A stretch of 64,000 nt of DNA from an uncultured Acidobacteriota bacterium (GTDB lineage: Bacteria > Acidobacteriota > Thermoanaerobaculia > Multivoradales > UBA5704). The notes beneath the pieces were generated by a model. That model was not told where the DNA came from. It saw only the letters and a list, made by a program, of their open reading frames with translations, and made no database searches. The stretch is taken from NCBI GenBank assembly GCA_963752235.1, contig CAVVXL010000021.1:9133-73132 (forward strand), given 5' to 3'. Positions 1,404 to 26,722 of the stretch are shown piece after piece. Within the stretch, counting starts at the first letter, position 1. Every line of letters begins with the position of its first letter. The translations under genes were made by a program, and so were the position numbers.

Positions 1404-1849
1404 GGCGGGGTTTGTGGACGCCGTGCCCGCTGTTCCGTACCTTGACGGGCTCCCGACCGCTTGGTTTCCCTCCCGGACCGTCCGTTTCGGCGGCTCGCCG
1501 ACGAGAAAACGGCCCGCTCGACCTTCGCGCGCCTCTCCGCCAGGAAAATTTCTCTCCTCGCAAGCGACGCGCGGCTGCTTCCTCGGCTGAAACGGCTCTC
1601 CGCCGGCTTCCCTGGCTCCCGTTGCGCCTTCCGCCGGTCCGACCGAGACCTCCTCTCTCCTCCCCGGAGGTTCCGCGCTTCCCTTCACCGCCTCGCGCCC
1701 TCGTTTCGAGCGCCGAACCGTCGCGCGAAATGGAAAGCGCCCAGGTTTCAAGTCAGAGGGGACGCTCGCCAAGCCAGCCACCGCTTCGCGCAAGGGAAGT
1801 TTGCCGCCGCACAAGCTTTGCGGGCTCACTGCTAGACTGATGAGCAGCC

Positions 1850-1925
1850 GTTTTTCAGGAGAAACCCCTTGGCGGATGACAGCTTCGACGTCTTCCTGAG
1901 CCACAACAGCCGCGAGAAACCGGCC
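1850..1925 (+). pseudogene. truncated third copy of the TIR-STAND gene 5' end (promoter-proximal region plus first ~17 codons)
   Basis: tttttcaggag..ccttggcggatgacagcttcgacgtcttcctgagccacaacagccgcgagaaaccggcc matches the upstream region and N-terminus (MADDSFDVFLSHNSREKPA) of the genes at 2269 and 4883. Similarity ends abruptly at ~1925 where IR element B begins. Confidence 0.75.
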
Positions 1926-1929
1926 GAGT

Positions 1930-2206
1930 CCCCGCGTGGAATCCGCCGTCCTGCCCTGCGAGGAGACGTCCCGCCGTCCCCGTGGCCTGCAGAGGTTCTC
2001 GTTATGCGCTGGGAACGTCTCTACGGGACGGTTGCCGATCTTGGAGCGACGGCGCGTTTCGGATGGGATCGGTCCCCATGCGGAACCGTCGGAGTCACGA
2101 CAACGTGCCCGTAGAGACGCTCCCAGCGATGAACGAGAACGTGACGCAGGCCACGGGGACGGCGGGACGTCTCTTCGCAGGGCAGGACGCACCGGGATTC
2201 GCGGGG
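1930..2206. repeat. MITE-like inverted-repeat element B (~100-bp imperfect arms, ~79-bp spacer)
   Basis: 1930-2028 versus the reverse complement of 2108-2206, ~88% identical by eye (cccgtagagacg...gcaggccacggggacggcgggacgtctc). Mirrored peptides appear in ORF-track 1936..2214(+) and 2021..2263(-). Confidence 0.75.
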
Positions 2207-2268
2207 CGCCCTGATCTCTGCACCCTCAGGGCTACGCTCAACCGCACCCCTTTTCAGGAGCAACGCCC

Positions 2269-4758
2269 TTGGCGAATAAGACCTTCGACGTCTTCCTGAG
2301 CCACAACAGCCGCGACAAACCCGCGGTGATCGAGATCGCCGAGGCGCTACGGGACCAGCGCCGCCTCAAGGTCTGGCTCGACGCCTGGTGCCTTACTCCG
2401 GGGAGGCCCTGGCAGGAGGAGATCGAAGCCGCCATCCTCACCGTCCGCTCCGCGGCCGTCCTTGTCGGCAAGGACGGGTTGGGCCCCTGGGAGATTCCGG
2501 AGATGCGGGTCTGTCTGGAGCAGGCGATCCACCACCAACTCCCCGTAATCCCCGTCCTGCTTCCGGGCCTTGAGAAGCCCCCTGAGCTCCCTCCATTCCT
2601 GTCGCGGTATACCTGGGTGGACCTCCGCGACGGTCTCACCGAGGGCGGGCTCGATCGCCTCGTTTGGGGGATCAAGAGCAAGAAGCCATCCCCCAAGAAG
2701 ACGGCTCAACGCCAGCCCTCCAAGCCCACCCCCCCTCGCCGGCACAACCTCCCCTTCCCCAGCCTGGGAGACCTCTTCAAAGGCCGCGACGCCGAGCTTC
2801 GCACCTTGAGCGACGGTCCGGCGACCGCGATCACCCAGGCGCAGACGCTCTTTGGGCTGGGCGGCATCGGTAAGACCCGGCTGGCCGTCGAGCACGCCTG
2901 GCGCTCCGGGGACCGGTACGACAAGGCGCTCTTCGTGGTGGCGGAATCGCCGCAGGCGCTCCGCTCCAACCTGGCGCGGCTCTCTCGGCCCAGCCTGCTC
3001 GATCTGCCGCAAATCGAGACGGCCTCCGAAGAGAGCAACGTGGAGGCCGTCCTCGGGTGGTTGCAGCAAAACAACCGGTGGTTGGTGATCCTCGACAACG
3101 TGGACACCCAGGAGGCGGAAAGGGCGGTCCTGGAGATTCTTCCGTCCCTAGCCAGGGGGCGCGTCCTCATCACCTCCCGGCTCCGGGACTGGCCGGCGAG
3201 CGTCCGGAGACAGTCGCTCGAGCTCCTCGGCCCGGAAGAAGCCCAGCGTTTCCTCCTCGAGCGCACGGCCAGCGACCGCGATCGAGCGCAGGCCGATCCG
3301 GAAACTGCCCGCCGGCTGGCCGAGACGCTGGGATACCTTCCTCTCGCGCTGGAACAGGCGTCGGCGTACATCGCCCATCACCAGATGAGCCTCTCCGCCT
3401 ATCTGGAGGAGTGGCAACGCGAGCGGGAGAAGGTCCTGCGCTGGTACAGAGCAGACGTCATGCAATATCCCGCCTCCCTTGCCGTGACCTGGCAAAAGAC
3501 GTTTCAGCAGCTCAGCCCCACGGCCGCGACCATCCTCCGCCTGTCCGCCTACCTCGCGCCCGAGCCCATCCCGGTGGAGATGTTCGAGCAGGAGGCGTCG
3601 ATCGTCGAGGAGTCCGTCCAGGCCTTTTGCGAAGAAACCGGGGTTGAGGCCGGCGATTCATCGATTCAGTCCGCCCTCGCCGATCTCGCCGCCTTCTCGA
3701 TGGCGACCCGCGCCGGGGCGAGCTTCGTGGTCCACCGGATGGTGCAGGAGGTTCTGAGATCCAGCCTTCCCGAAGGGTACCGGCGAGATTGGATCGAGCG
3801 CTCCCTGCGGTTGGTCAACGATTACTCGCCAGACACTCCAAGTGATGTGCGGACTTGGCCGGTGTGGGATCCGTTGCGGCCACATGCGGCGGTCGTCGTT
3901 CAACATGCCGATGCCGCCGCGATCTTTATACCGACAGCTCGCCTCATTGGCAGTTTGTCTCTTCTACTCAAGACAAAATCCTTGTATGACGAAGCTGAGC
4001 GTTTGGTTCGACGCGCGCTCGAGATCAATGAGAGCGCTCTGGGACCTACTCATTCAGAGGTAGCGATCTGCCTCAACAACCTGGCCCTGTTGCTTCACGA
4101 CACCAACTGCCTAGCCGAAGCCGAACCTTTGATGCGGCGCGCTCTCCAGATCGACCAACAAGCTCTCGGTGAAATTCACCCAAACATCGCAAGAGATCTC
4201 AACAACCTGGCTTCGTTGCTTCAGGCCACACACCGCCTGGCCGAAGCCGAACCCTTGATGCGGCGCGCTCTACAGACTTTCGAACAAGTCTTGGGAGAAG
4301 ATCACCCAAGAGTCGCCATAGTTCTCAACAACCTGGCTCAGTTGCTTCAGGGCACCAACCACCTGGCCGAAGCTGAACCCTTGATGCGGCGCGCTCTCCA
4401 GATCGACCAACGAGCCTTCGGTGAAAATCACCCAAGCGTCGCAAGGGATCTCAGCAACCTGGCCCGGTTGCTTCAGGACACCAACCGCCTGGCCGAAGCC
4501 GAGCCCTTGATGTGGCGCGCTCTCCAGATCGACCAACAAGCCCTTGGTAAAAATCACCCAAACGTCGCCATCCGACTCAATAACCTGGCCCGGTTGCTTC
4601 AGGCCACCAACCGCTTGGCCGAAGCCGAGCCCTTGATGCGGCGCGCTCTGGCCGTCTTTGAACAGAGCCTGGGGCCAGAACATCCGAACACCGGGATCGT
4701 GCGAGAGAACCTGGACGCTCTGCTGGCGGAGATCGCCGGGGGATCCTCGCAGGGATGA
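2269..4758 (+). CDS. TIR-NB-ARC-TPR STAND NTPase (bacterial NLR-like), paralog 1
   Basis: N-terminal TIR motif FDVFLSHNSRDK. NB-ARC P-loop GLGGIGKTRLA, Walker-B-like WLVILDNVD, ITSR, GLPLAL motif (LGYLPLAL). C-terminal ~6x 42-aa TPR_10/12-like repeats (NNLAxLLQxTNRLAEAEPLMRRAL). TTG start 8 nt after aggag. Confidence 0.9.
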   Translation: MANKTFDVFLSHNSRDKPAVIEIAEALRDQRRLKVWLDAWCLTPGRPWQEEIEAAILTVRSAAVLVGKDGLGPWEIPEMRVCLEQAIHHQLPVIPVLLPGLEKPPELPPFLSRYTWVDLRDGLTEGGLDRLVWGIKSKKPSPKKTAQRQPSKPTPPRRHNLPFPSLGDLFKGRDAELRTLSDGPATAITQAQTLFGLGGIGKTRLAVEHAWRSGDRYDKALFVVAESPQALRSNLARLSRPSLLDLPQIETASEESNVEAVLGWLQQNNRWLVILDNVDTQEAERAVLEILPSLARGRVLITSRLRDWPASVRRQSLELLGPEEAQRFLLERTASDRDRAQADPETARRLAETLGYLPLALEQASAYIAHHQMSLSAYLEEWQREREKVLRWYRADVMQYPASLAVTWQKTFQQLSPTAATILRLSAYLAPEPIPVEMFEQEASIVEESVQAFCEETGVEAGDSSIQSALADLAAFSMATRAGASFVVHRMVQEVLRSSLPEGYRRDWIERSLRLVNDYSPDTPSDVRTWPVWDPLRPHAAVVVQHADAAAIFIPTARLIGSLSLLLKTKSLYDEAERLVRRALEINESALGPTHSEVAICLNNLALLLHDTNCLAEAEPLMRRALQIDQQALGEIHPNIARDLNNLASLLQATHRLAEAEPLMRRALQTFEQVLGEDHPRVAIVLNNLAQLLQGTNHLAEAEPLMRRALQIDQRAFGENHPSVARDLSNLARLLQDTNRLAEAEPLMWRALQIDQQALGKNHPNVAIRLNNLARLLQATNRLAEAEPLMRRALAVFEQSLGPEHPNTGIVRENLDALLAEIAGGSSQG
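3934..4740 (+). repeat. 126-bp in-frame tandem repeats encoding the TPR array of paralog 1
   Basis: Repeated ctcaacaacctggc...gccgaagccgaacccttgatgcggcgcgctct units. Confidence 0.8.
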
Positions 4759-4882: not shown

Positions 4883-7519
4883 TTGGCGGATGACATCTTC
4901 GACGTCTTCCTGAGCCACAACAGCCGCGACAAGCCCGCCGTGATCCGGATCGCGGAGGCGTTGCGCGACCGGCGCGGCCTCAAGGTGTGGCTCGACGTCT
5001 GGGAGCTGCCGCCCGGCCGCCCGTGGCAGGACGCGCTCGAGACGATCCTGCGCACGGTCCGCTCGGCGGCGATCCTGGTCGGGCAGGACGGGCTGGGGCC
5101 GTGGGAGATCCCCGAGATGCGGGCCGCGCTGAACGAGATGGTCCATAGGCAGCTCCCGGTGATCCCCGTCCTCCTACCGGGCGCTCCCCGCTCGCCGGAG
5201 CTCCCCCTCTTCCTGGCGCAGAACACCTGGGTGGACCTCCGCGACGGCCTGACCGAGGAGGGGCTCGACCGGCTGCAATGGGGGATCACCGGCAGGAAGC
5301 CGCCGCTGCGGCCGGTGCCGTACCGCGCGGTCGCGCCGCGCCTCCACAACCTTCCCTTCTCCTCGCTCGGCGACCTCCTCAAGGGGCGCGACGACGAGTT
5401 GCGGAGCCTCGACGCGGGACAGACGACGGCGATCACCCAGGCGCAGACGATCTCGGGGCTCGGCGGCATTGGCAAGACGCGGCTCGCCGTCGAGTACGCC
5501 TGGCGCTCGGGGGAGCGCTACGACGCGGCGTTCTTCGTGGTCGCCGAGTCGCCGCAGGCGCTGCGCGCCAACCTCGCGCACCTCGGGCGGCCGGAGCTGC
5601 TCAATCTTCCGGAGCACGGGGCGGCGGCGGCCGAGCAGAGCCTCGCGGCCGTGCTGCGCTGGCTGCGCGAGCACGACCGCTGGCTGCTGATCCTCGACAA
5701 CGTCGACACCCCGGAGGCGCAGGCCGCAGTGATGGAGATCCTGCCGTCGCTCTCGACCGGCCGCGTCCTCATCACCTCGCGCATCCGCGATTGGGCGCCG
5801 GTCGTCGACCGCCAGCTCCTCGAGCGGCTCGGGCCGGACGAGGCGCGGCGCTATCTCCTCGACCGCACCGCCGGCGACCGCATCCCCGCCGCCGACGACC
5901 GCGAGCTGGCCGGTCGGCTCGCCGACAAGCTCGGCGGCCTGCCGCTCGCCCTCGCCCAGGCCGCCGCCTACATCGCCCACTACCAGACGAGCTTCGCCGA
6001 CTACCTCCAGACCTGGCAGAAGGAGCGCGACGAAGTCCTCACCTGGCACGACCCCGCCGTGATGCAGTACCCCGCCTCGGTCGCCGCGACCTGGCAGACG
6101 ACCTTCCGCCAGCTCTGTCCGATGGCGACCGCCGTGCTCCGCCTCGCCGCCTTCCTGGCGCTCGATCCCATCCCGGTCGAGATCTTCGAGCAGGGGGAAG
6201 CGCTGGTCTCCGAGGCGGTGGGGCTGCTCGGCGAGGAGGCCTCGGCGACCGGCGGGCCGGCGGGCGAGACGACCCTGAAGGATGCGATCGCCAGCCTCGC
6301 CGCCTGTTCGCTGGTGACGCGGAAGGGGACGAGCTTCACGGTGCACCGCATGGTGCAGGAGGTGCTGCGGGCGGGGATTCCGCAGCGGCGGCGGCGCGAC
6401 TGGATCGAGCGCTCGCTGCGCCTGGTCGTCGCCTTCTGCCCCGCGGAGTCGGACGACGTCCGCACCTGGCAGGTCTGGGACCTCCTGCGCCCGCACGCGA
6501 CGCGGATCCTCGGCTTCGCGGACCGCGAGGGGATCCATCATCCCACCTCGGAGCTGATGAGCCGCCTCGCCCTCCTCTACTTCAGCAAGGGGCTCTCCGG
6601 CGAGGCGGAGCCGTTGATGCGGCGGGCGCTCGAGATCGAGGAGAGCTGCTTCGGCCCGCAGGACCCCAACGTCGCCAGCCGCCTCAACAACCTCGCGCTC
6701 CTCCTCCAGGACACCAACCGCCTCGCCGAAGCCGAGCCCCTGCTGCGCCGTGCCCTGCGCATCGACGAGCGCGCCTACGGCCCGCGCCACCCCGACGTCG
6801 CCCGCGACCTCAACAACCTCGCCCAGCTCCTCCAGGACACCGGCCGCCCCGCCGACGCCGAGCCGCTGCTGCGCCGCGCTCTGGAGATCGACGAGCGCGC
6901 CTTCGGACCGAGCCACCCCAACGTCGCCATCCGCCTCAACCACCTCGCCCGCCTCCTCCAGGCGACCCACCGTCTCGCCGACGCCGAGCCGCTGATCCGG
7001 CGGGCCCTGGAGATCGACGAGGCCGCCTTCGGCCCGCAGCACCCCGAAATCGCCATCGACCTCAACAACCTCGCCCAGCTCCTCCAGGCCACCGGCCGCC
7101 TCGCCGAGGCCGAGCCCCTCCTGCAACGGGCCCTCGCGATCGACGAGGCCGCCTGCGGCCCGCAGCACCCGAACGTCGCCATCCGTCTCAACAACCTCGC
7201 CCGCCTGCTCAGCGCCGCCCACCGCCTCGCCGACGCCGAGCCCCTGATGCGCCGCGCCCTCGACATCGACGAGCACACCCTCGGCGCCCACCATCCCGAC
7301 GTCGCCCTCGTGCTCAACAACCTCGCGCTGCTGCTGGAGGAAACCCAGCGTCCGCACGAAGCGGAGCCGCTGATGCGGCGGGCGGTCGAGATCTTCGAGC
7401 AGAGCCTGGGGGTGGATCATCCGAAGACGCGAACGGCGCGGAAGAATCTGACGGCGCTGTGCAAGGCGAATGTCTGCGCGGAGGCGGGGGTGGCCGTCCT
7501 GCCGAATGAAACCTATTGA
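4883..7519 (+). CDS. TIR-NB-ARC-TPR STAND NTPase (bacterial NLR-like), paralog 2
   Basis: MADDIFDVFLSHNSRDKPAV TIR. GLGGIGKTRLAVEYAW P-loop. LLILDNVD. LGGLPLALAQAAAYIA GLPL motif. ~7 TPR repeats. TTG start after aggagg. Same architecture as 2269..4758. Confidence 0.9.
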   Translation: MADDIFDVFLSHNSRDKPAVIRIAEALRDRRGLKVWLDVWELPPGRPWQDALETILRTVRSAAILVGQDGLGPWEIPEMRAALNEMVHRQLPVIPVLLPGAPRSPELPLFLAQNTWVDLRDGLTEEGLDRLQWGITGRKPPLRPVPYRAVAPRLHNLPFSSLGDLLKGRDDELRSLDAGQTTAITQAQTISGLGGIGKTRLAVEYAWRSGERYDAAFFVVAESPQALRANLAHLGRPELLNLPEHGAAAAEQSLAAVLRWLREHDRWLLILDNVDTPEAQAAVMEILPSLSTGRVLITSRIRDWAPVVDRQLLERLGPDEARRYLLDRTAGDRIPAADDRELAGRLADKLGGLPLALAQAAAYIAHYQTSFADYLQTWQKERDEVLTWHDPAVMQYPASVAATWQTTFRQLCPMATAVLRLAAFLALDPIPVEIFEQGEALVSEAVGLLGEEASATGGPAGETTLKDAIASLAACSLVTRKGTSFTVHRMVQEVLRAGIPQRRRRDWIERSLRLVVAFCPAESDDVRTWQVWDLLRPHATRILGFADREGIHHPTSELMSRLALLYFSKGLSGEAEPLMRRALEIEESCFGPQDPNVASRLNNLALLLQDTNRLAEAEPLLRRALRIDERAYGPRHPDVARDLNNLAQLLQDTGRPADAEPLLRRALEIDERAFGPSHPNVAIRLNHLARLLQATHRLADAEPLIRRALEIDEAAFGPQHPEIAIDLNNLAQLLQATGRLAEAEPLLQRALAIDEAACGPQHPNVAIRLNNLARLLSAAHRLADAEPLMRRALDIDEHTLGAHHPDVALVLNNLALLLEETQRPHEAEPLMRRAVEIFEQSLGVDHPKTRTARKNLTALCKANVCAEAGVAVLPNETY
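6542..7450 (+). repeat. 126-bp in-frame tandem repeats encoding the TPR array of paralog 2
   Basis: Near-identical units encoding LNNLAxLLQxTxRLAxAEPLxRRALxIDExAxGPxHPxVA. Confidence 0.8.
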
Positions 7520-22719: not shown

Positions 22720-25700
22720 TCAGCGCTCTAGAATCTCGAAGATCGAGTTAAATAGAAACTCTCGGATCTCGCCCTTCTGATCGTCTCTCTTGTGCACGAG
22801 TTTGTAGAGGAGAGAGACTTCTGCAGCGGTGAGTGCCTGCTGCTGGCTGACTCGCTCCCAAGAAATCTGAGGTTCACCTTTTCCCGTCAACAACGGCTCC
22901 ACCGCAGGCAACCAACGCGCGGGATCAACTCCACCAAAGCTCAGCACGTCCACCGCACGCAAGCGAAGCTCCGCATCCTCCACCGTCAGCAACGGCTCTA
23001 GCGCAGGCGACCAACGCGCGGGATCGACTCCAACAAAGCTCAGCACGTCCGCCGCACGCAAGCGAAGCTCCGCATCCTCCCCCGTCAGCAACGGCTCCAA
23101 TCCAGGCAACCAAAGCGCGAAATCAACTCCACCAAACCTCAGCACGTCCGCCGCACGCAAGCGAAGCTCCGCATCCTTCACGATCAGCAACGGCTCCAGC
23201 GCAGGCCACCAATGCGCGGGATCAACTCCACCAAACCTCAGCATGTCCGCCGCACGCAAGCGAAGCTCCGCATCCTCCACCGTCAGCAACGACTCCAGCG
23301 CAGGCAACCAACGCGCGGGATCGACTCCACCAAACCTCAGCACGTCCGCCGCACGCAAGCGAAGCTCCGCATCCTCCACCGTCAGTAACGACTCCAGCGC
23401 AGGCAACCAACGCCCGGGATCGACTCCAACAAACCTCAGCACGTCCGCCGCATGCAAGCGAATCTCCGCATCCTCCACCGTCAGCAATGACTCCAGCACA
23501 GGCAACCAACGCGCGGGATCGACTCCAACCGAACTGAGCAGGGACGCCGCACGCCAGCGAAGATCCGCATCCCCCCCCGTCAGCAAAGGCTCCAGCGCAG
23601 GCCACCAACGCGCGGGATCGACTCCACCAAGCCTCAGTAACTCCGCCGCACGCCAGCGAAGCTCTCCATCCTCCCCCGTCAACCATGGCTCCAGCGCAGC
23701 CAACCAACGCGCGGGATCGACTCCAGCAGACCTCAGTACGGACGCCGCACGCCAGCGAAGCTCCACATCCTCCCCCGTCAGCCATAGCTCAAGTGAGCGC
23801 GACCACTTCTCGCTGTTCGCGTCAAGATATTCTTGAACAAAGGATTCAATGTGGGCCATGCTGCTTTTATAATGTAATAAGGCAGTCAAGACCTCTAACC
23901 TGTCGTCACCTACTCGCGCCAGCCCGAGAGCGGCATGGCATTGCACATCGGGATCACTATCTTTAAAGCTTAGCCGGCACGCATCGAGAGCGTTTGGATT
24001 CTCCCTCGTGACGTTACTGAATAGGCGAACCGCCTCCATCCGTACATCCCAGGAATCGTGCCTCGCCACAGGTTGAAGGGCAGTGACCGCATCCCGAGAG
24101 GGCCTCAGGCGGGGAAGCGCGCGGACTGTCTGAACGAAAGCGTTCTTGAAGGGACTGTATGGCAGCTCCTGAACCACTTCTCCCAATCGTACGATCACCC
24201 GCTCGGCAAGGCTCCGCTTGACCCCGACGTCGTCAGCAATGCAGGCGGCGGCCAATCGCAGATTCGAGTTCAGAAGCTGTTCCAGAGGTCCCGGATCCCG
24301 AAGCCATATTGCCTCGACCAGATCCGTGGCCGTGTCGCGGTCCCGCTGGACGATACCGAGATATCCCACCGCGAGCAGGATGACTTCCCGCCAGCGGGGA
24401 TCGTTCCGGAGCGGCAAAATGCGCTCGATGGCGCGAGAGCTGGGCGTGGTCAGCTCCACGGCCGCGAGAAACTCTTCGAAGGTCGGGTGCCAGAAGGCGA
24501 AAATGTCTTTCCCACGCTCCTCGAGTAGCCCGGCCCGGTCAGCTGCCGCATTGAGATAGCTCTCCGCCGTGGCCTCCGGATGGTCCTCATCGAGCTCCTG
24601 ATCGAGGAGGATCTCCACCAGCTTGCGCTTGAGCTCGACGCGGTGAACGACACCCGTCGGTTTCGTGCGGCGCGTCCACTCGGCCACGGCGCCCCAGACG
24701 CGGATGAGGTTGTTGATGGGGAGATGCACGCCGCCGACGTCGATCCCGGCCAGCGAGCGCCCTCTGTTCCAGGTATCCATCAGGGTCTTGACGGCCCGGT
24801 CGTAGAGTTGCACCCGCTCCTCGGGCAACCGGGCCTGCTCGTGACGGATCAAGGCGAGAATGACGAGCATCAGCGGATTGGTCGCCAGCTCGAAGACCTT
24901 CGGGTTCCGCTGGATCTCCTCCAGCATCCCTTTGGCTTCCTTCTCCGCTTTGGAAAGATCGGGAGCCTGCGGGTGGCGCCAGCGCTCGAAGGCACGCTGC
25001 CATTGGTGGACGAACGTCTCGACCTGCTCGGGAGAAAAATTCGGCAGCGAGAAATGGGGAATGTCGCCCGCCAGGCGGACGTAACCGTAAGGGCGTGAGG
25101 TCAGAAGGAACCGGTTGGCTCTATGGTCGGCCAGGAACCGGTCCACCGCCTTGACCACCAGGATGCGTTCGCGGCTGTCCGGAATCTCGTCCACGCCATC
25201 CAGTAGCAGGAAAACCCGGCCGGCCTGGAGTTCCTGATCCATGGCGACCTGAAGCGCCTCGCCTCCGCAGTGGACCAAGATGCCGTCGAGATACTCGCGG
25301 AGCGAGAGATCCTTGCCGCGCGACCGCGCATCCGTATAGCCCGCGAGCGGCAGGACGATCGGCGTGAGATCTAGATCCCCCCACCCCGAGCGGTCTCCGA
25401 GCCGCTCCTGCCTCGCCTCGCGATCCAGAGAGAAGGACCGGGCCAGGAACCGTGTCAAGGTGCTCTTGCCCACTCCCGGCCCGCCGATCACCACGGCGTG
25501 GCGGATCTGCGAGAGAACATGATCAACCGGACTCCCCTTCACGCCTTCCTTCTGTCCCGCGCGCCACCGCTCGCCCGTCAGGACCGCGAAATCCTCCTCC
25601 CGCCGGGCGCGCTCTTCGGGACCCAGATCCTGGTTGTCGAGCAGATCCTTCAGGAGCTTCCCTTCTCGGTCCCGGGTATCGGCCTGGTCCCGCTCCGGAA

Positions 25701-26271: not shown

Positions 26272-26335
26272 TTCAGCCTCCGTGCAGGAAGTCTATCGAA
26301 GAAGTGGAAGCCGGCGCTGGGCTTAGGCCTGGCGT

Positions 26336-26558
26336 CCGGCCCACCGGGCCGGGAGAACAGAGCCCAGGGCTGAGGCCGAAGGCCGATGCCCTGGGTTGAG
26401 GAACGACAACGCAGAGCGGCCTGAAAGGTCGCGAGAAATCTTTATCGAGTGGGGTTCTCGCGGCCCTTCAGGCCGCCAGGAGGTGCCGCACCCATGGACC
26501 CAGGGCATCGGCCTACGGCCTCAGCCCTGGGCTAGGATCTCCCGGCCCGTTGGGCCGG
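26336..26558. repeat. nested inverted-repeat element C (MITE-like or structured RNA) upstream of the NACHT gene
   Basis: Outer 61-bp arms ccggcccaccgggccgggagaacagagcccagggctgaggccgaaggccgatgccctgggt and reverse complement (2 mismatches). Inner 22-bp arms gcggcctgaaaggtcgcgagaa / ttctcgcggcccttcaggccgc around a 16-nt loop. Confidence 0.75.
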
Positions 26559-26722
26559 ATGCAAAACCGCCGAGCAGGTCCTGCGTTTCTCCTCCTCGTA
26601 CTCGGAGGAGGCCGATGGGCTCACAACGTTCTAACAAGGATAGGAACCGGCCTGCGAACGCCCCCTCCCGGCCTCCCCCGAGTACAGGGGAGGAGAAAAG
26701 CTCCCACCGAGGTAGGTTGACG

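Follow-up and report, generated by a model that had tools for sequence, protein, structure and literature searches.

The region considered here belongs to the window, i.e., the whole 64-kb stretch of DNA that was analysed (base composition 70% G+C), and comprises two intact genes of an array encoding TIR-NB-ARC-TPR proteins, g1 and g2, the remnant of a further gene of this kind, and a large imperfect palindrome located between the remnant and g1. Both intact genes can be aligned with the remnant (1824–1926) over their upstream region, ribosome-binding site and first 19 codons, in agreement with the original prediction of a truncated TIR gene copy. The homology to the intact genes stops at 1926 and the palindrome begins at about 1928, and the earlier statement that the palindrome begins where the homology ends is true within a few bases. 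The regions P1, preceding the remnant, and P2, preceding g1, are only 75% identical. The parts of the locus are listed in Table 1.

Table 1. Parts of the locus around the palindrome (window positions).
Feature	Position	Strand	Basis or remarks
P1, promoter and ribosome-binding-site region of the presumably deleted first array gene	1824–1868	+	Aligns with upstream regions of L109 T1, g1 and g2
TTG start and first 19 codons (LADDSFDVFLSHNSREKPA) of the presumably deleted TIR-NB-ARC-TPR gene	1869–1926	+	Same break after ...GCCG in L111 and twice in L110
Probable 3'-terminal nucleotides of the lost gene with its former stop codon	1927–1939	+	Junctions aligned with intact gene ends (L111, L109, L112, L113)
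Left outer extension of the dimer (GTGGAATCCGCCGTCCTGCCCTGCGAG)	1936–1962	.	Pairs with 2174–2208; kept in the orthologous copies of L109, L110, L111, L112 and L113
Left REP unit, GTAG on the − strand at 2024–2021	1963–2024	−	nhmmer match 1950–2038, − strand, 70 bits; family consensus
Spacer between the GTAG ends, 86 nt, partly self-complementary	2025–2110	.	Ends GGGACGGTTGCCG / CGACAACGTGCCC
Right REP unit, GTAG at 2111–2114, then GAGACGCTCCC ... GGGACGTCTC	2111–2173	+	nhmmer match 2098–2184, + strand, 57 bits
Right outer extension (TTCGCAGGGCAGGACGCACCGGGATTCGCGGGGC)	2174–2208	.	Pairs with the left outer extension
P2, second promoter and ribosome-binding-site region, serves g1	2209–2268	+	Region kept in L110 and L111; present in L112
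g1, intact TIR-NB-ARC-TPR gene, 829 aa	2269–4758	+	Pfam TIR_2, NB-ARC, TPR; P0121 100% identical
g2, second intact TIR-NB-ARC-TPR gene	4883–7519		

The palindrome, designated element B, occupies positions 1928–2208 and is present in the window in one copy. Its outer arms (1947–1990 and 2146–2189) are 98% complementary and its inner arms (1995–2037 and 2098–2140) are 81% complementary; a gapped alignment of the arms over 1925–2215 contains 118 matches in 128 aligned positions and several short indels. The arms of ~100 bp, ~88% complementarity and ~79-bp spacer proposed earlier are near these measured values. Folding as a single strand gave −220.9 kcal/mol (z = −16.9) for the + strand and −214.3 kcal/mol (z = −15.4) for the − strand, and none of 200 shuffled sequences folded as well; the check by RNA folding that had been suggested along with the original prediction indicates a strong fold on both strands. 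The element had also been described as free of ORFs, which holds in the sense that no gene support was found for any of the ORFs crossing it, but mechanically called ORFs do span it, e.g., an 81-codon ORF (1869–2114) that begins at the remnant's own TTG. The ribosome-binding site and the TTG start of the remnant are intact, and the reading frame continues into the palindrome.

Element B is composed of a ~63-nt unit, beginning with GTAG, and its inverted copy; the two GTAG ends are on the inner side, separated by the spacer. The consensus of the unit, GTAGAGACGTTCCC...GGGACGTCTC, was built from 177 distinct full-length unit sequences among 221 matches; counting from the GTAG end, the layout is GTAGAGACG(Y)TCCCAG, about 20 variable nucleotides and GCAGGCCACGGGGACGGCGGGACGTCTC, with less conserved extensions on both sides. 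A basal stem of 10 bp, GAGACG-N-TCCC paired with GGGA-CGTCTC (GGGACGTCTC), leaves the GTAG unpaired; this stem is the only universal one, a second stem being lost in the subtype to which the window belongs, and the right unit (2111–2173) forms its own hairpin when folded. The combination of an unpaired GTAG and an imperfect palindrome, characteristic of REP sequences, is evident from the consensus, from the fold and from compensatory variants of the basal stem, namely GTTCC/GGAAC in locus L107 and GGTCC/GGACC in locus L108, neither of which was chosen by the 21-mer described below. The 12 GTAG-inside dimers of the window's subfamily share one common consensus hairpin, in which two-sided changes retain 9 of the 77 pairs. 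Covariation within the unit is not fairly scorable in the 104 loci compared here, because they were selected by an exact 21-mer located in the 3' half of the unit and the variation in that half is censored.

This 21-mer (CGTCCCGCCGTCCCCGTGGCC), taken from the best-conserved part of the arm, matched more than 104 stretches in a collection of species-representative genomes; nearly all of the matches listed are in MAGs of Thermoanaerobaculia/Acidobacteriota, and at least 23 are in the single 7.66-Mb chromosome OY970373.1. The search for other copies of the arm, proposed earlier, has thus uncovered a whole family, and element B is far from unique. The relative order of two 21-mer copies is opposite to that in the window in 43 cases and the same in two. 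A profile search of the 104 loci and the window revealed 212 units in 119 clusters, including 67 GTAG-outside dimers, 15 GTAG-inside dimers (the type of element B), 33 singletons and four alternating arrays. The units are intergenic in the loci with gene calls (L107, L108, L111, L112), and most members of the family sit in unrelated contexts; high copy number and extragenic location are, again, features of REP sequences. Whole dimers, including their interiors, are 85–95% identical between loci with non-aligning flanks; since whole dimers are homologous despite their unrelated flanks, the dimer seems to be the spreading entity, as in REP families that form inverted dimers and alternating clusters. 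Target-site duplications, which had been suggested as a further check, were found at none of the inspected copies (L005, L007, L009, L020, L021 and the window), the flanks being inverted-complementary or unrelated and never direct. In L071 (2356–2735) and L039 (3472–3842), GTAG-inside dimers form the core of ~380-nt palindromes with the outer ends CCCATACCSTTACACACATCTC, which belong to one subfamily; these nested palindromes are comparable to the REP dimers found inside 'target palindromes' (PMC3733652).

The 64-kb window contains no transposase gene, and clustering by similarity of the ORFs of at least 100 codons within 1.5 kb of the units revealed no recurrent transposase family, the clusters consisting chiefly of translations of the repeat and of group II intron reverse transcriptases. 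A search for a transposase between widely spaced units gave, instead, a gene pair in L095 and spurious ORFs. The pair in L095 (2387–3431) consists of two overlapping ORFs (207 and 147 codons) between units 1.26 kb apart, which, judging by eye, may encode a RES-domain toxin and an Xre-type antitoxin. A search seeded with E. coli RayT revealed a REP-associated tyrosine transposase (RAYT) of ~167 aa in six of the 104 loci (L055, L029, L024, L062, L073 and L074), always between units; the order in L055 is unit, 45 nt, RAYT gene, 62 nt, unit. Two further homologues with 63–75% identity, in L107 and L108, were located by protein identity alone, and both genes have dimers of the ~63-nt GTAG unit on both sides, which brings the number of loci with a RAYT gene flanked by units to eight. 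The protein (167 aa) has the size (~150–200 aa) and the motifs of a RAYT, i.e., an HUH motif (DHMHG), a WQ motif (AWQPRF) and a motif of the YIxxNP type with the catalytic tyrosine (RAYIRDNP), in agreement with the class-2 signatures tabulated in PMC6006769. The thresholds of the curated families are not passed: the NCBIfam model NF047646 (REP_Tyr_transpos) matched with E = 1.3e-13 and 51.1 bits, below the cut-off of 80, and Pfam PF01797 (Y1_Tnp) with 17–20 bits, below the cut-off of 23. Homologues at E ≤ 1e-10 number 1386; many are named RayT by JGI, several are from Thermoanaerobaculia, and some carry precomputed PF01797 matches.

The intervals between the units and the RAYT gene in L055 (CTAC-GGACACGTTGCCG ... 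CGGTAACCTGCCC-GTAG) match the ends of the spacers of GTAG-inside dimers, that of the window included, and the spacer of element B (GGGACGGTTGCCG ... CGACAACGTGCCC) is conserved in the GTAG-inside dimers of its subfamily. Since the spacer ends correspond to the REP-to-transposase intervals, the dimer looks like a REP-RAYT-REP shell devoid of the transposase.

The eight loci where the RAYT gene is flanked by units therefore indicate a REP/REPIN-RAYT family of a known kind, with an unusually long unit. Element B is very probably a GTAG-inside dimer of this RAYT-associated family, located at a gene boundary of the array beside an internally deleted gene; in the terminology of Di Nocera it would be a 'TT dimer', and in that of Bertels and Rainey, a REPIN-like doublet. 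The family, which is abundant in Thermoanaerobaculia and seems mobile judging by its distribution, would have been spread by the RAYT, an HUH/Y1 enzyme of the IS200/IS605 superfamily. By analogy with the E. coli RAYT, the enzyme may bind the unit when it is folded in single-stranded DNA, with cleavage in or close to the GTAG, a chemistry that would leave no target-site duplication; inverted-complementary flanks without such duplications are what is expected for a transposase of this type.

Among the described systems, the closest counterparts are the GTAG REPs, BIMEs and REPINs of E. coli and Pseudomonas fluorescens with their RAYTs, which share the GTAG at the foot of the hairpin (PMC3733652, PMC3116915, PMC5581495, PMC3479197). 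Other likenesses are the high copy number, the extragenic location, the presence of singletons, of both kinds of inverted dimers and of alternating arrays, the folding of the whole dimer as one long hairpin, the absence of target duplications, and the units flanking a small HUH/Y1 transposase gene; this anatomy has been described for GTAG REPs, their HH/TT dimers, REPtrons and REPINs (PMC3733652, PMC5581495). The differences concern, first of all, size: the described GTAG REPs are 20–40 nt long with a stem of 5–13 bp and a loop of 2–20 nt (PMC3733652), whereas the unit described here is 62–64 nt long (85 nt with the extensions), the basal stem enclosing ~40 nt, and its dimers measure 230–430 bp versus ~100 bp. 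The catalogued GTAG repeats come mainly from Proteobacteria, Cyanobacteria, Chloroflexi and the PVC group (PMC3733652), and the phylum of the present host (Thermoanaerobaculia, Acidobacteriota) is outside that list; the transposase is also divergent and scores below the cut-offs of the curated families. TIRtrons, or TIRYTs, are RAYT-like genes with long inverted repeats, and they include an Acidobacteria group containing ORF1552 of Koribacter versatilis, with a repeated TIR family (PMC3733652). The phylum is the same as here, and the repeats are likewise long (>50 nt), located on either side of a RAYT-like gene and dispersed elsewhere in the form of dimers or clusters; however, the repeats of TIRtrons are unrelated to GTAG REPs (PMC3733652), whereas the units considered here have a GTAG and a REP-like foot, and it is by the description of the repeat that the two are set apart.

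A protein search with g1 revealed five related loci (L109, L110, L111, L112 and L113), three of which (L109, L111 and L113) are syntenic, with the genes of DnaB and a fatty-acid hydroxylase upstream. The L109 locus is collinear with the window over more than 15 kb (DnaB 97% identical), but it lacks element B and has a single 5' region only; the window stretch 1790–1926 is the orthologue of the upstream region and first 19 codons of the L109 gene T1, the P1 region (103 nt) being 92% identical. In L112, a full-length TIR-NB-ARC-TPR gene with a P1-type 5' end has a stop codon TGA running into AATCC..., followed by the element, P2 and the next gene, the product of which starts with MANKTFDV, as in g1; the copy of the element in L112 is 90% identical to window positions 1937–2386 over 450 nt. 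In L113 and L109, a full gene precedes a partial left arm of the element. The structure of L111 repeats that of the window (P1 fragment, element with 95% identity, P2 and gene), with another copy of the element starting in the stop codon of that gene, and L110 contains two consecutive copies of the 5' fragment with the element, followed by P2 and a gene. A join between the stop codon and the element is, thus, seen in four loci (L109, L111, L112 and L113), where the ends of the intact genes read ...CCTTCT-TGA-AATCC.

All four remnants (those of the window and L111 and both in L110) break after the same ...GCCG at codon ~20, and the break is followed by ~9 nt resembling the last codons of the intact genes and then by GTGRAATCC. 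The former stop codon is TGA in the relatives and TGG in the window (1937–1939). In the window, 1927–1939 has a modest to moderate likeness to the 3' ends of the genes, which is more obvious at the junctions of L110 and L111, and about 10 nt of this segment probably derive from the 3' end of the lost gene. These nucleotides, together with the stop-codon joins in the relatives, suggest that the gene was lost by an internal deletion beside a pre-existing element, and the junction must be old because the relatives share it. The original prediction had named two observations that would count against it, a unique element and the same junction in relatives; the junction is indeed shared, but the element is not unique.

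The simplest reading of these alignments is that the window, L110 and L111 have inherited one old internal deletion of the gene preceding the element. Their ancestor would have lost ~2.3 kb (a size inferred from the intact members of the array), beginning at codon ~20 and extending to within about four codons of the stop; what would have remained next to the palindrome is the promoter with 19 codons and ~10 nt of the gene end. The dimer itself is the standard spacer of the tandem TIR-NB-ARC-TPR array: it starts in the stop codon of one gene, and only ~15 nt separate its other end from the conserved region upstream of the following gene. The module composed of the promoter, 19 codons and REP dimer is absent from L109, occurs once in the window and in L111 and twice in L110, and its number was, in the simplest reading, changed later by unequal exchange. 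In a comparison of L110 (400–1340) with the window (1824–2268) and L109 (9900–10060), all copies of the module share the junction, which is consistent with unequal exchange between ~400-nt repeats.

The insertion of the element and P2 into a simple two-gene ancestor was rejected in view of the intact gene-element-P2-gene arrangement of L112. The interpretation of the first gene of L109 as a plain chimera of an L112-type upstream gene and g1 was also rejected, the TIR region of that gene not being of the L112 type. The array is mosaic: the NB-ARC regions fall into three clean types, with 91–94% identity within the g1 type, and the TIR regions of the array genes do not follow these types. The TIR region of g1 (window 2269–2720) is only 58–73% identical to all others, and g1 switches sharply to 94–97% identity with L109 at about nucleotide 440 of the gene; this mosaic could have arisen by swapping of domains or by gene conversion, the gene being of the immune type. 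Because of it, the history with a single deletion is a simplification. Metagenome scans with the element/P2 junction and with the stop-codon/element junction gave no match.

Several other explanations of the locus were considered. It is conceivable, if doubtful, that element B is mainly a host cis-element and not selfish DNA, e.g., a structured RNA, an insulator or terminator between P1 and P2, or a protein-binding site of the TIR genes. Such a function would agree with the conservation of the region: the elements of the window, L111 and L110 are 94.8–95.2% identical to one another and the 76 nt up to the start of g1 (2193–2268, overlapping the right extension) are 91–95% identical to L110 and L111, whereas the non-coding region upstream of the element, including the P1 remnant, is only 68–70% identical in this comparison. 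In addition, the complementarity of the arms is kept by paired changes (e.g., GTCGCC/GGCGAC in L111), and the promoter P1 and its ribosome-binding site are intact and directed into the element; since the ribosome-binding site and TTG are intact and the sequence upstream shares 92% identity with its counterpart in a functional orthologue, P1 may still fire into it. However, an Rfam E-value scan of window positions 1–30000 gave no match on element B, and a promoter and terminator scan of 1400–2400 found no promoter-like site and a sole terminator-like match (− strand, 2155–2140), which is within the number expected by chance. Both strands also fold equally well, most members of the family are in unrelated contexts, and among the other orthologous dimers, some are less and some more conserved than the flanking sequences, so strong conservation was rejected as a general trait of the family. 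A role as a host cis-element is, moreover, compatible with a REP origin and is no substitute for it.

We consider it unlikely, in a related vein, that the host has recruited the REP dimer to be a boundary module of the immune-type TIR-NB-ARC-TPR array, where it would insulate or regulate the tandem promoters, promote recombination as a hot spot, or do both. This suggestion is based on the start of the element in stop codons and on the conservation of the element and the next promoter at the level of coding sequences while the nearby non-coding DNA drifts. A hot-spot role, if true, would account for the copy numbers of 0, 1 and 2 and for the domain-level mosaics in the relatives.

The palindrome might also have caused the deletion, the second option of the original prediction, its hairpin or cruciform during replication, or cleavage by the RAYT, removing the adjacent gene body; there is only a small chance of this. 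The right end of the deletion is ~10 nt from the element, the number of fragment-element modules varies (0, 1 or 2), and another GTAG palindrome, element A (1216–1402), occupies exactly the place where three relatives carry a 1.1-kb fatty-acid hydroxylase gene. Nevertheless, a single event is inferred and two adjacent cases make no statistic; no clear microhomology is seen by eye at the junction, and the left end lies in ordinary coding sequence, the break not being tied to the GTAG.

The original prediction offered the insertion of a MITE that destroyed a paralogue, and a classical MITE derived from a DDE-type insertion sequence, inserted into the 5' end of the TIR gene, is now largely refuted and very improbable. 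Element B does share with DDE-derived MITEs the short non-coding structure, long terminal-type inverted repeats, many dispersed copies and a transposase acting in trans, and it abuts the truncated gene; as a dispersed non-autonomous repeat with hundreds of copies, the family is MITE-like in the broad sense, and this part of the earlier reading stands. The destruction of a paralogue by insertion does not, since in L112 the element sits between the stop codon of a full-length gene and the promoter of the next, the remainder of the gene is absent downstream of the element in the window, and the flanks of the copies are inverted-complementary, without direct target duplications. Also unlike transposon ends, the units form inverted dimers of either type, stand alone or make up alternating arrays, and the directed search, in place of a recurrent family in the ORF clustering, gave an HUH/Y1 transposase (six plus two loci). 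Least probable of all, and close to negligible, is an attC-like cassette boundary with the TIR genes as cassettes: the imperfect palindrome directly follows the stop codons of successive genes (L109, L111, L112 and L113) in a mosaic array of variable copy number, as integron attC sites would, but each array gene has its own promoter or conserved upstream region, the repeat is dispersed genome-wide outside any array, and the linked enzyme is a Y1/HUH transposase and not an integron integrase.

The RAYT-associated family places a REP/REPIN-RAYT system in Thermoanaerobaculia. In its features the unit stands between the short REPs, on the one hand, and the long inverted repeats of TIRtrons, on the other, and this is relevant to the origin of REPs from IS200-like ends. 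For annotation, the family accounts for hundreds of large palindromes in these genomes and for the spurious ORFs drawn through them. The locus itself is a dated case of birth-and-death evolution of immune-type genes arranged in an array, the gene boundaries of which each carry a conserved repeat.

Other repeats were found in the window and in the related loci. The arms of element A (1233–1270 and 1354–1391) are 100% complementary, and each contains GTAG followed by an 8-bp stem with a 4-nt loop (GTAGCCCAGGGTGTCAACCCTGGG); by its motifs, element A would be a GTAG-outside dimer of a classical short GTAG REP. The arms gave 32.5 and 31.2 bits with the Rfam family Acido-Lenti-1 (RF01687; gathering score 37), and this proximity to the threshold suggests that the Acido-Lenti-1 'RNA motif' may be a REP family. 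In L109, and likewise in L111 and L113, the corresponding position between DnaB and the TIR array is occupied by the fatty-acid hydroxylase gene (~1.1 kb); a single arm of the element A family is located in L109 at 2439–2495. Element C (26332–26562), a third palindromic repeat, has 65-nt arms, 91% complementary and 101 nt apart. A relative of element C is present in L112 (1401–1510), in the spacer before the first TIR gene, and element C therefore appears to represent another dispersed family.

A group II intron, recognised by Rfam RF02005 (120–132 bits), RF00029 and a reverse transcriptase ORF of ~470 aa, adjoins units in L001 (300–2145), L081 (2425–4270) and L062 (4953–6888). The unit is cut at an identical position, between GGGGACGGCG and CCGGGTAGACC, in L055 (4676), L081 and L001. 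In L081 and L001, the intron borders this break; the remaining 138 nt of L055 contained no match to the intron. A unit of L062 seems to be interrupted by the intron, and the overall picture is that of an intron targeting the hairpin of the repeat. Two further repeats of the window are unrelated to element B, namely, about 9–10 tandem 99-nt repeats at 22785–23876 (nine overlapping 300-nt matches with 99-nt spacing) and a periodic repeat of ~3.3 kb that begins at about 41 kb, occupies the remainder of the window (41000–64000) and presumably represents, judging by eye, modules of a non-ribosomal peptide synthetase encoded on the − strand.
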